NCBI RefSeq assembly: GCF_030013205.1
Contig: NZ_CP122648.1
Source: Escherichia coli
GTDB lineage: Bacteria; Pseudomonadota; Gammaproteobacteria; Enterobacterales; Enterobacteriaceae
Length of the DNA: 64,000 nt
Strand: one strand, 5' to 3'
Part shown: positions 58,701 to 61,700 of the stretch, in pieces
Position numbering within the stretch: position 1 is the stretch's first letter
How the letters are laid out: every line of letters starts with the position of its first letter
Program-made: the position numbers

Positions 58701-61700
58701 ATGGCGAAGGTAAAACTCGAGGCAATTTGTCTATCCTGAAAAAATCAATGGCTACAAATCAGGCCTGTTGCAATGTTGAGATTGATTCTGATAAAGCTGA
58801 TTATGAATATGTTTATTATTTTTTAAAGACACAATATGATGAGCTTCGCCAGCTATCTTCCGGTGTTAGAAAAAACCTTAATTCTAACGATATAAAAAAC
58901 TACCCTATTCGTTTGCCATCCTCTCTGGACGAACAACGAAAAATTGCCTGTGTATTAAAAGTATTAGATGACAAACTTGCTCTCAACAACCGCATCAACG
59001 CCGAACTGGAAGCGATGGCGAAAACGCTGTATGACTACTGGTTTGTACAGTTTGATTTCCCTGATGCCGACGGAAAACCGTATAAAACCTCCGGCGGTAA
59101 GATGGAGTATAACGCCACGCTGAAACGGGAAATTCCGGCGGGGTGGAATGACTCCATTCTTGGTAAGTTTATTGAGTTAGATCGTGGCGTTACTTATAGC
59201 AAAGAGGATGTTCGAACTCAGGATGATAAAGATACGATAGGCATTCTTCGCGCTACAAATGTGACGGGAAATAATGTTGATATTGATGATTTAGTCTTCA
59301 TTCCTTCTAGTAGAGTAAACGTTAATCAAATGCTAAATAAATTTGACATATTGATCGTGATGTCAAGTGGTAGTAAGGAGCATGTAGGGAAGAATGGCGT
59401 GTATTATTTCGAAAAAAAACATGCATTTGGCGCATTTTGTTCAAAAATTACACCCGTCAGAAAATACAGATATTTTATAAATACATTCCTGCAATCGAAA
59501 TGGTTTAAGTCTTATATAAACAATCAGTGCTTGGGAACTAATATTAATAACCTGACCAATACGCATATCACTAATTGTGAAATCATATGCCCCACTCCTG
59601 ATGTTGTGGCGTTATTCGAGAATAAAATGATGCCAATTTATAATAAACTGGCATCAAACACTCAAGAGAATAGTCATTTAATCCAACTCCGCGACTGGCT
59701 CCTCCCTCTACTTATGAACGGACAGGTCACGGTCAAATAATCCCCGGCGTGGTTTTGCGAGGCGCATTCCAGATCCGCATTGCGCCGCACTCACCGCAGC
59801 AAAACCGCTTGCCGTTCATAACCGATCGCAGTATCTTTCTCCCGCGCCTGCAAAATCAGGCGTCGGGATTAGCCTCCTGAAAACCGTTACAGGCGACACT
59901 TGACGCACCAGCGTCTTTTTTGTGTCGTGCGTTCGGCTACACCTCAATGGCGGGCCGGGCGGGGGCGTCGCAAGACGCGCCGGTTTCCTGTAACGCCGGT
60001 AAGGCTAACCCCGTCCGGTTCCGCCCCCATGAGATTAGCCTCTCTAGTGGCGGACATAATAAACCGTTACAGGAGACGCCCTATGGCTACAATCCTCATC
60101 TCTGACTGCGATTTACTCGATCTATTGTCCGCTCCCTTCAATGCCACCACGGATTTCACCGTCCTGGCCGACTACTGCGCCCGCTTCGCCGAAACCCTGA
60201 TAGAAACCGACGATCCGGCGCTGCGGCTGGCGCTCTGCGGACGGCTTCACGCGGCTCTTGCGCTATTGCAACCCACGCTGCACGACCCCATCCCGCCGCA
60301 TCTGATTGAAAGCCTGACCGTTGATACCCTTCCCGCCACACCAGAGCACTTTATTTCCGAACCAGATTCCTTGTGCGAATACTGCCTCGCGCTGCTCCAG
60401 CTACTGCTGGAACGTCCAGCAGAGCCAAAAACGGAACAAACCCTGACCGGGCTTCTGTGTGAGCTGGTCTGGAATTTCACGGAAGGACTCAAATCCCCGC
60501 GCTGGCTGCGTACCGCCGACGGCGTAAAATTTATCAGTGAGGTGGCCGCATGATGCAACAGGACTGACATTCCGCCAACATTATTGCGGTGCTGAAAAAG
60601 CGGGGAACGCCTCTGGCGGCACAGAGAAAAACTCATTGCGGAAGCGCTGTAAATATCGCCAGAAATCATCTGGTCCTCAAGGTACTTTGATAGCAAAGGC
60701 AAGCAGGCTGGTTCAGTCCAGTGTTTCTCTTCTTGCATTTTCAGAAATGGGAGGCTGGGAGTCTATCGAAATGGTTCGTCGATATGCTCACCTTGCACCT
60801 AATCACCTTACCGAACACGCACGGCAAATAGACTCAGTCCTGAACCCATCGGTCCCAAATTTGTCCCAGTCAAAAAATAAGGAAGGTACTAATGATGTGT
60901 AACTTATTGATTTAAATGGTGCCGATAATAGGAGTCGAACCTACGACCTTCGCATTACGAATGCGCTGCTCTACCAACTGAGCTATATCGGCCCTGAAAG
61001 GACATGTTCACGAACGTGAATCACGGTGGACAAGGTTAAAACTAACCGGGCGATGCGTCAATGGCCTTGTGAATCAAATGGCTACTTTTGCATCACCCGG
61101 TTTTATTTACGCACGAATGGTGTAATCACCAATGCCGATCCACTTGTAAGTGGTCAGTGCTTCCAGCCCCATTGGGCCACGCGCGTGGAGTTTTTGTGTG
61201 CTTACCGCCACTTCCGCACCCAGACCAAACTGGCCGCCGTCGGTAAAACGCGTAGAGGCGTTAACGTAAACAGCGGACGAATCCACTTCGTTAACAAAAC
61301 GCTGGGCGTTGCGCATATCGCGAGTCAGGATCGCATCGGAGTGTTGCGTGCCGTGTTCACGAATATGGGCGATGGCATCGTCAAGATCGCTGACGATTTT
61401 GACGTTCAAATCTAATGACAGAAACTCATCGTCATACTCTTCCGCTTTAACAGCCACCACCTTCGCGGGGCCTGTCTGCAACTGCGCCAGTGCACCTGCA
61501 TCAGCGTGTAACGTCACGCCACTTTCCGCCATTTGTTTGCTTAATGCGGGCAGGAAACTATCGGCGATGTTTTTATTCACCAGCAACGTTTCAACCGTAT
61601 TACATGTGCTCGGTCGCTGAGTTTTCGCGTTGACGATCACTTTTAATGCTTCAGCGATCTCCGCGCTTTCATCAACGTAAATATGGCATACGCCTATACC

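Follow-up and report, generated by a model that had tools for sequence, protein, structure and literature searches.

An IsrK/C4 RNA switch in front of an uncharacterised, predicted four-helix protein in small tRNA-integrated islands of Enterobacterales

The genetic switch formed by a leader RNA, IsrK, and an antisense RNA, C4, is already known from P4, P1 and Gifsy-1. The same switch stands in a 64,000-nt stretch of Escherichia coli DNA (NCBI RefSeq assembly GCF_030013205.1, contig NZ_CP122648.1; this whole stretch is referred to below as the window), where it precedes an open reading frame (ORF) at 60083-60553 on the plus strand, and both this payload and the island backbone to which it belongs are undescribed. 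RefSeq lists the product of the ORF as WP_000201175.1, 'hypothetical protein', a literature search for that accession found no mention of it, and 100% identical DNA was found in pig enterotoxigenic E. coli and in other E. coli chromosomes. A preliminary description, made from the sequence alone, had singled out this ORF and the repeats upstream of it as the candidates for something undescribed. For the protein this has held up, but the repeats are the a and b target boxes of the known IsrK(seqA)/C4(CI) switch of P4, P1 and Gifsy-1.

The immI region of P1 and P7 (c4 RNA-icd-ant) has in common with the locus in the window an RNA of the C4 family, RF01695. In P1, C4 contains a and b boxes, a downstream box lies over the ribosome-binding site (RBS) of the first cistron, and translation of that cistron is coupled to that of the second, details that are reportedly owed to Citron and Schuster in 1990 and to Riedel and colleagues in 1993. 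The payload of the P1 switch consists of Icd and Ant, an antirepressor, and the element is a plasmid prophage, whereas the payload here is a 156-amino-acid (aa) protein together with a Ner-like regulator, and the element is a chromosomal island. Kil and Icd block cell division, Ant, AnrP and epsilon block repressors, and to our knowledge every characterised occupant of the slot behind the switch acts by binding and blocking another protein. The immunity region of P4, in which IsrK and C4 go by the names of seqA and CI RNA (PMC3632133; PMC4825925), runs PLE-seqA-cI/CI RNA-seqC-kil/eta-epsilon-orf151-alpha, and it resembles the locus in the window both in the order of IsrK/seqA, C4/CI, and box with RBS, and in having an antisense RNA that pairs with boxes on both sides (PMC4825925, PMC3632133). 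The isrK-orf45-anrP-isrJ region of Gifsy-1 likewise has an IsrK leader with a terminator upstream and a small effector downstream; its read-through mRNA is translationally silent through RNA structure, and isrK-orf45-anrP gates an antirepressor (PMC4825925).

The switch in the window, read in the direction of the ORF, is made up of the following parts:

59809-59837, plus strand: putative sigma-70 promoter (-35 TTGCCG at 59809-59814, 17-nt spacer, -10 TATCTT at 59832-59837)
59844-59921, plus strand: IsrK/seqA-type leader RNA (Rfam RF01394, 68 bits against a gathering score of 50)
59864-59875 (b1) and 59885-59893 (a1), plus strand: boxes inside IsrK, recognised by repeats and complementarity
59902-59921, plus strand: intrinsic terminator of IsrK, a hairpin with a U-run, found by a terminator scan
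59943-60031, plus strand: C4/CI antisense RNA, the immunity factor (Rfam RF01695, 71.8 bits against a gathering score of 45; full length, model positions 1-87)
59983-59995 (a2, the loop) and 60002-60013 (b2), plus strand: boxes inside C4, complementary to the boxes on either side
60033-60041 (b') and 60065-60077 (a'), plus strand: downstream target boxes, of which a' contains the Shine-Dalgarno (SD) sequence AGGAG of the ORF
60083-60553, plus strand: the ORF under study (ATG start; 471 nt, or 156 codons and a stop)

The good RBS reported in the preliminary description is there, with AGGAG at 60071-60075 and the ATG 7 nt further on; the length it gave, 157 aa, is one residue too long. Rfam matches to IsrK and C4 were also obtained in P4 itself, and the model RF03163 (c4-a1b1) reaches 43.8 bits on the leader in the window, slightly below its gathering score of 46.7. 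Two direct repeats run through the boxes: AAACCGTTACAGG[C/A]GAC, with copies at 59881-59897 and 60061-60077, and GATTAGCCTC, with copies at 59867-59876 and 60033-60042. Within IsrK, the complement of the C4 loop (59983-59995) lies at 59885-59893; with 60065-60077 the loop forms an inverted repeat (I1) of 13 nt, 92% complementary, that spans the whole SD of the ORF, and the C4 segment 60002-60013 pairs with 59864-59875 and with 60033-60041. Of the features of a C4/CI immunity module, the C4 RNA, the IsrK leader with its terminator, complementarity to boxes on two sides, and a box that overlaps the first cistron's RBS were all found. Ahead of them, 59809-59837 would be the sigma-70 promoter of the module, equivalent in position to PLE of P4 and with a transcription start near 59844: its CTTGC and TATCTT blocks are kept in relatives and in P4, and in a generic promoter scan it falls under the threshold.

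How far the likeness to P4 extends is seen in an alignment of the two sequences, in which the match extends over promoter blocks, IsrK and C4 and on through the SD and ATG into the first ~6 codons (MATTLTP in P4); beyond codon ~7 the two diverge completely. The ORF that occupies this slot in P4 encodes the 65-aa Kil, which served as a positive control and was matched by the NCBIfam Icd-like model NF033153 at 76 bits. Since the alignment continues through SD, ATG and first codons, the 156-aa protein stands behind this switch in place of Kil/Icd, as the first cistron after the C4 RNA and with a translation start region common with that of P4 kil. In the P4 record NC_001609, a 137-aa 'cI gene product' coding sequence (CDS) at 8168-8584 spans the Rfam C4/CI RNA at 8420-8507, and the 65-aa Kil ORF, which lies within the same region, carries no annotation.

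The pairing of C4 with its boxes was followed through a sample of relatives, 79 ORF loci taken from one-genome-per-species data, 75 of which have an IsrK/C4 leader directly 5' of the ORF. C4 is present in cis at ~66 of the 79 loci, IsrK is found without C4 at 7-8, and four have no detectable leader. Among 65 loci, the C4 loop takes ~25 distinct sequences, each matched by the boxes on both sides at its own locus, and in relatives 8-12 nt separate the end of the downstream box from the ATG. Pairs were counted on a 65-sequence alignment, with 500 shuffles and slid pairings as controls. For C4 and the downstream boxes, 87% of the cells were paired, with 214 double-change cells against ~57 after shuffling (0 of 500 shuffles reached the observed count) and 31-43% paired when the pairing was slid; for C4 and the upstream boxes, 93% were paired, with 225 double-change cells against 60 (0/500), and the slid controls over the two pairings together gave 28-48%. 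These counts lend strong comparative support to a pairing between C4 and the translation start region of the ORF. C4 is cleanly gone in L023, L055, L070, L074, L079, L086 and L090, where IsrK abuts the SD box of an intact ORF; the site of the loss lies ~100 nt 5' of the ORF, at ~9970-10000 of those loci, and the losses apparently arose when repeats of the a or b box recombined.

The protein is acidic and rich in Leu and Ala, as was first noted, with an isoelectric point (pI) of 4.4, 23 Asp and Glu residues against 9 Lys and Arg, 31 Leu (20%) and 17 Ala (11%); the G+C content of the ORF is 58%. No Pfam family was matched, whether the protein was scanned singly or with 51 family members, and the Pfam domains Ant, KilAC and Bro are absent from it. 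In addition, there were no matches at E<=1 in NCBIfam, no family in PHROGs and none among the defence-protein models of PADLOC-DB 2.0, no catalytic or DNA-binding motif was recognised, and the best E values in a sequence and profile search of the PDB, 0.2-0.4, were at chance level. The AlphaFold2 (AF2) model, built on an input alignment of 51 sequences, is a confident one (predicted local distance difference test, pLDDT, 91.4; predicted template modelling score, pTM, 0.85) and consists of four long helices in an up-down bundle, followed by a C-terminal beta-hairpin and preceded by ~7 disordered N-terminal residues. Foldseek matched this model in AFDB50 with uncharacterised members of the same family only, one of which is labelled DUF1484, a domain with no Pfam match among the 51 scanned members, and found no match at E <= 0.001 among the viral structures of BFVD. 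Remote-homology search and structure prediction, the checks put forward in the preliminary description, have thus yielded a confident four-helix model and no characterised family, in agreement with its statement that the ORF could not be placed. As judged by these searches, the family is uncharacterised, belongs to no described family, and merits a family definition of its own.

An orphan, as it was also called, the ORF is not: ~24% of complete E. coli genomes (1329/5426) carry it, nearly always on the chromosome, and 608 clusters at 90% identity, all without a name, are homologous to its protein across the Enterobacterales. Clustering at 50% identity gives 225 representatives, and the genera include Escherichia, Salmonella, Klebsiella, Enterobacter, Citrobacter, Dickeya, Pectobacterium, Brenneria and others; the contigs of remote members are too short for gene context. 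The species sample was found via the ORF itself, which biases it toward intact copies, and in it the ORF is intact, with 135-166 aa, in all but one of 77 loci, while the median pairwise ratio of non-synonymous to synonymous substitution rates (dN/dS) is 0.27 (1103 pairs). In roughly half of the 79 loci, IsrK, C4 and the ORF stand by themselves beside core genes; the ORF of these solitary units is also intact, with a dN/dS of 0.31. Everything in these comparisons points to a real, conserved gene under purifying selection. Phage genomes in INPHARED gave one match, to an unannotated 1.5-kb record, and IMG/VR a single contig, indicating that the family is essentially not phage-borne. With the family undescribed and the ORF conserved in this way, neither of the findings named beforehand as speaking against its interest, a confident hit to a characterised housekeeping or phage structural family, or evidence that the ORF is not expressed or conserved, was obtained. 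Two genomes hold 3-4 copies of the module each, Enterobacter sp. ENT03 (L024, L038, L055, L074) and Sodalis sp. dw_96 (L042, L050, L063); the copies that have C4 differ in its loop sequence within each genome, which suggests that heteroimmune islands reside there together.

In intact relatives the order is IsrK, C4, ORF, Ner-like regulator, sometimes HigA, EFASI RNA, XerC-like recombinase, convergent P4-family integrase and tRNA, and the suggestion that the ORF has its place in a regulatory region of a mobile element is borne out. The Ner-like regulator, of 68-89 aa, belongs to Pfam HTH_35 and is related to SfsB and Ner (the NCBIfam SfsB model gives 115 bits, under its cut-off of 150), and in ~31-34 of the 79 loci its gene overlaps the ORF in an ATGA start/stop. 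The XerC-like recombinase of intact islands has 294 aa and is a Pfam Integrase_1 protein. In ~24 relatives a P4-type integrase is convergent with the operon, which differs in this from that of P4, which stands at the far end of the element. EFASI RNA (RF02957, 99-119 bits) is found just 5' of the Integrase_1 gene, for instance at 11300-11429 of L004 and 11733-11861 of L009, and may be the leader of the recombinase gene; a literature search on EFASI found nothing relevant. The P4 genes alpha, epsilon, sid, delta and psu were found neither in the window (tblastn) nor within 10 kb in the 79 relatives, and P4 orf151, orf106 and AlpA/Vis are absent from both. Lacking any satellite core gene, these islands fall outside the usual definition of a P4-like satellite (PMC9122126), and a reading of the locus as the remnant of a P4 satellite was rejected for this reason.

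Based on the anatomy of the locus, the conservation of the protein, the covariation of the RNAs, the fold, the operon context and the equivalence of the slot with that of P4 kil, we read the ORF as the C4-gated first gene of a small early operon in the backbone of tRNA islands, with a product that binds another protein, and we would give this reading as a whole a probability of roughly 0.55. By analogy with the described systems, C4 would repress the ORF in vivo. Transcription from a single promoter would produce the IsrK/seqA leader and end mostly at the terminator of IsrK itself, and read-through past that terminator would give the C4/CI RNA and then the ORF mRNA. The C4 boxes a2 and b2 would pair with a1 and b1 of IsrK, and with a' and b' 5' of the ORF. 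Because the duplex at a' covers the entire SD, we propose that there would be no translation of the ORF while C4 is in excess, and the untranslated transcript would then be terminated early, as in P4 and P1. IsrK has the same boxes and could thus compete for C4. Once the switch is open, the ORF protein and the Ner-like regulator would be produced together, and in the derepressed island the former would bind and block another protein. That it is a protein-binding inhibitor seems most likely, on the slender grounds that it is a small acidic helical bundle with no catalytic or nucleic-acid motif, and that the other occupants of the slot act in that mode.

Several observations weigh against this reading. 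The ORF protein is not matched by the Icd/Kil profile NF033153, shows no homology to P4 epsilon (BLASTP, E = 0.26) or P4 orf151, and was aligned with AnrP of Gifsy-1 (STM2616) by hhalign at a probability of 0.3%; descent from epsilon, orf151 or AnrP was rejected by these comparisons, and it is therefore from position, not homology, that an action like that of the other occupants is argued. When the ORF protein and the Ner-like protein were modelled by AF2 as a linker fusion, no complex was predicted with confidence (pTM 0.48), in what was a weak test with just 21 paired sequences, and a direct complex of the two is accordingly not supported. Seven or eight loci with an intact ORF have lost C4, so that gating by C4 is not obligatory. 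Lastly, the partner genes in the window are dead, and the module may therefore no longer serve any element there. The operon in the window is a fossil, with a dead Ner-like gene, its own recombinases gone, and only the RNA switch and the ORF intact; beyond the ORF it continues as follows:

60550-60706, plus strand: Ner/SfsB-like (HTH_35) pseudogene, which retains the ATGA overlap with the ORF stop
60699-60902, plus strand: C-terminal stub of an integrase, 86.6% identical to the integrase C-terminus of SfI, SfII, SfIV and phi458
60917-60992, minus strand: tRNA-Thr (thrW), the region of the attachment site, with proA and proB beyond

The order as annotated is hsdS, a 52-aa 'ash' gene, the ORF, a helix-turn-helix pseudogene, an integrase fragment, tRNA-Thr (thrW) and proA. 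The Ner-like gene has suffered a TGG to TGA change in codon 6 (60565-60567), an internal deletion of 65 nt, a GAA to TAA change, and the loss of its 3' end; the deletion and the second stop are also present in another E. coli lineage, L096. The ORF does lie between hsdS and an integrase stub, as first described, but the stub is no part of the island. It has no similarity to the XerC-like recombinase of the islands, there is no P4-type integrase in the window, and the stub was rejected as the island's own integrase or recombinase and recognised as a relic of a serotype-converting phage of the SfI/SfII/SfIV type. Compared with the sister thrW allele, which also has a dead Ner-like gene, the ORF shows 28 synonymous and 9 non-synonymous differences (dN/dS ~0.10), a comparison that does not date the selection, since the divergence of the flanks is much lower than that of the ORF and suggests recombination.

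Other roles for the ORF have to be weighed against the one that we favour. It might encode a toxic effector in the manner of Kil/Icd that is held in check by C4, in which case IsrK-C4-ORF would be an addiction or abortive module with an RNA antitoxin. Such a role would account for the module's outliving the decay of the rest of the island, as in the solitary units with their intact ORFs, and the slot and start region are those of P4 Kil. It would also be in keeping with two published results: IsrK-like sequences of P4-like prophages in S. Typhi were found to be required by transposon-directed insertion-site sequencing (PMC3632133), and derepression of such an operon in Gifsy-1 results in growth arrest (PMC4825925). 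We nevertheless consider it unlikely, as the protein is unlike Icd and Kil and matches no PADLOC model, the finding of loci by means of the ORF would itself enrich the sample for intact copies, and the 7-8 loci that have kept the ORF without a C4 in cis speak against a strongly toxic product, unless C4 is provided in trans.

Equally unlikely, in our judgement, is a role as antirepressor or helper-derepression factor, an analogue of P4 epsilon, P1 Ant and Gifsy-1 AnrP with a prophage or island repressor as its target. Antirepressors are the classical payload of C4 switches (P4 epsilon annotation; AnrP, PMC4825925), and small acidic helical proteins are typical among protein-binding inhibitors. 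The absence of any sequence or profile similarity to epsilon or AnrP speaks against it, as do the absence of the satellite genes alpha, sid, delta and psu from the islands, and the near absence of the family from viral collections.

There are two readings to which we give still less credence. In the first, the ORF protein assists or modulates either the Ner-like regulator or the recombination enzymes (XerC-like recombinase and integrase), and controls the excision or establishment of the island. The tight ATGA overlap with the HTH_35 gene, and the EFASI RNA, Integrase_1 gene and convergent P4-type integrase that come next in line, are what one would expect of such a protein; the AF2 fusion, within the limits already given, showed no confident interface with the Ner-like protein, and the ORF stays under purifying selection where that gene and the recombinases are gone. 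In the second, which is speculative to much the same degree, IsrK-C4-ORF would be an autonomous module, a fast-evolving antisense-RNA lock (~25 specificities in 65 loci) on a toxic or growth-arresting effector directed at the host. It could survive the decay of islands by stabilising the neighbouring defence cargo, as an addiction module does, or alternatively it could fire when an invading P4- or P1-like element or phage perturbs the levels of C4 or IsrK. If true, about a quarter of E. coli genomes would have their defence hotspots marked by an abortive or guard system of a new, RNA-gated type.

It is very improbable that the ORF product counters restriction or other defences, as an acidic DNA mimic that appears early when a new host is entered. 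A pI of 4.4, a place as the first gene expressed in the absence of immunity, and the restriction-modification (R-M) or other defence cargo that adjoins the ORF in several islands would all suit a factor of that kind. The model is, by contrast, a compact four-helix bundle and not an elongated DNA-mimic fold, nothing like Ocr or ArdA was among its structural matches, the cargo is unrelated in most loci, and the islands show no transfer genes. The idea that the ORF arose by chance or is a relic without function, as the decayed operon around it in the window might suggest, is effectively refuted by a dN/dS of 0.1-0.3, near-universal intactness, the confident fold, and hundreds of clusters.

The genes that lie upstream of the module in the window are defence genes carried as cargo:

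51785-52705, minus strand: AbiEii
52692-53495, minus strand: AbiEi
53737-56856, plus strand: hsdR
56850-58487, plus strand: hsdM
58493-59740, plus strand: hsdS

The G+C content of hsdS is 37.7%, against 51-53% for hsdR and hsdM, and this would fit a separate history of the specificity subunit. A co-occurrence of the ORF with type I R-M or AbiE genes in other genomes had been suggested as a check, and proved to be rare: just 3-5 of the 79 species loci have them within 10 kb, which makes the ORF part of the backbone rather than a companion of R-M or AbiE. The cargo varies from island to island, with TacAT, AbiE and DUF4747 in Klebsiella, type I R-M with DarTG in Pectobacterium, and Rhs toxins at another E. 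coli site. A sister thrW island in E. coli (L096) has AbiE and, replacing hsdRMS, a 1069-aa reverse transcriptase of the defence-associated (DRT) UG5-nitrilase type. The two cargoes, which extend over 8445-11654 in L096 and 53737-59740 in the window, are bordered by the same AbiE pair on one side and the same IsrK-C4-ORF flank on the other.

The slot at thrW is thus one in which defence genes are swapped, and it is distinct from the psu-int hotspot of P4-like satellites. The hotspots of P4-like satellites and integrative islands likewise consist of a conserved backbone flanking a slot with interchangeable, unrelated defence systems. In contrast to them, the backbone here has neither psu nor cos, the flank is the IsrK-C4-ORF module, and some of the islands hold Rhs or toxin-antitoxin cargo in place of defence genes. 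The position of the cargo differs as well, being 5' of the switch here and between psu and int in P4-like satellites (PMC9122126). Elsewhere in the window there is an Rfam IS009 RNA (187.8 bits, 41670-41870, minus strand) that is unrelated to the ORF locus.

One further annotated gene overlaps the switch:

59947-60105, plus strand: 'ash family protein' CDS (PGAP/RefSeq, the former being NCBI's Prokaryotic Genome Annotation Pipeline; 52 aa; Pfam Phage_ASH), annotated in the identical E. coli region

From the conserved ATG, the 'ash' frame is open up to the start of the ORF in just 17 of 65 loci, and its frame relative to that of the ORF varies (0, 1 and 2 in 15, 29 and 21 loci, respectively). 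A frame so rarely open, and so inconstant in its relation to the ORF, indicates that the CDS is most likely an annotation artefact that arose from translating the C4 RNA gene, and part of the Pfam Phage_ASH family is probably the translation of a conserved RNA. The same count led us to reject for this family a coupling through an 'ash' or orf45 frame of the Gifsy type; unlike in Gifsy-1, an orf45-type upstream ORF is not conserved, and coupling of that kind is unlikely here.

For annotation, the point to be taken is that 'ash family protein' calls in this ORF family are translations of C4 RNA genes. For the biology of the Enterobacterales, the finding is that the same switch has been wired to a different payload, a predicted four-helix protein of ~150 aa that is usually accompanied by a Ner-like regulator, and that this payload is the backbone of widespread small tRNA-integrated islands with interchangeable defence, toxin and Rhs cargo. 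The function of the ORF would reveal how these islands switch on, and it may reveal how they excise or become established, and whether the module contributes to the retention of defence cargo.

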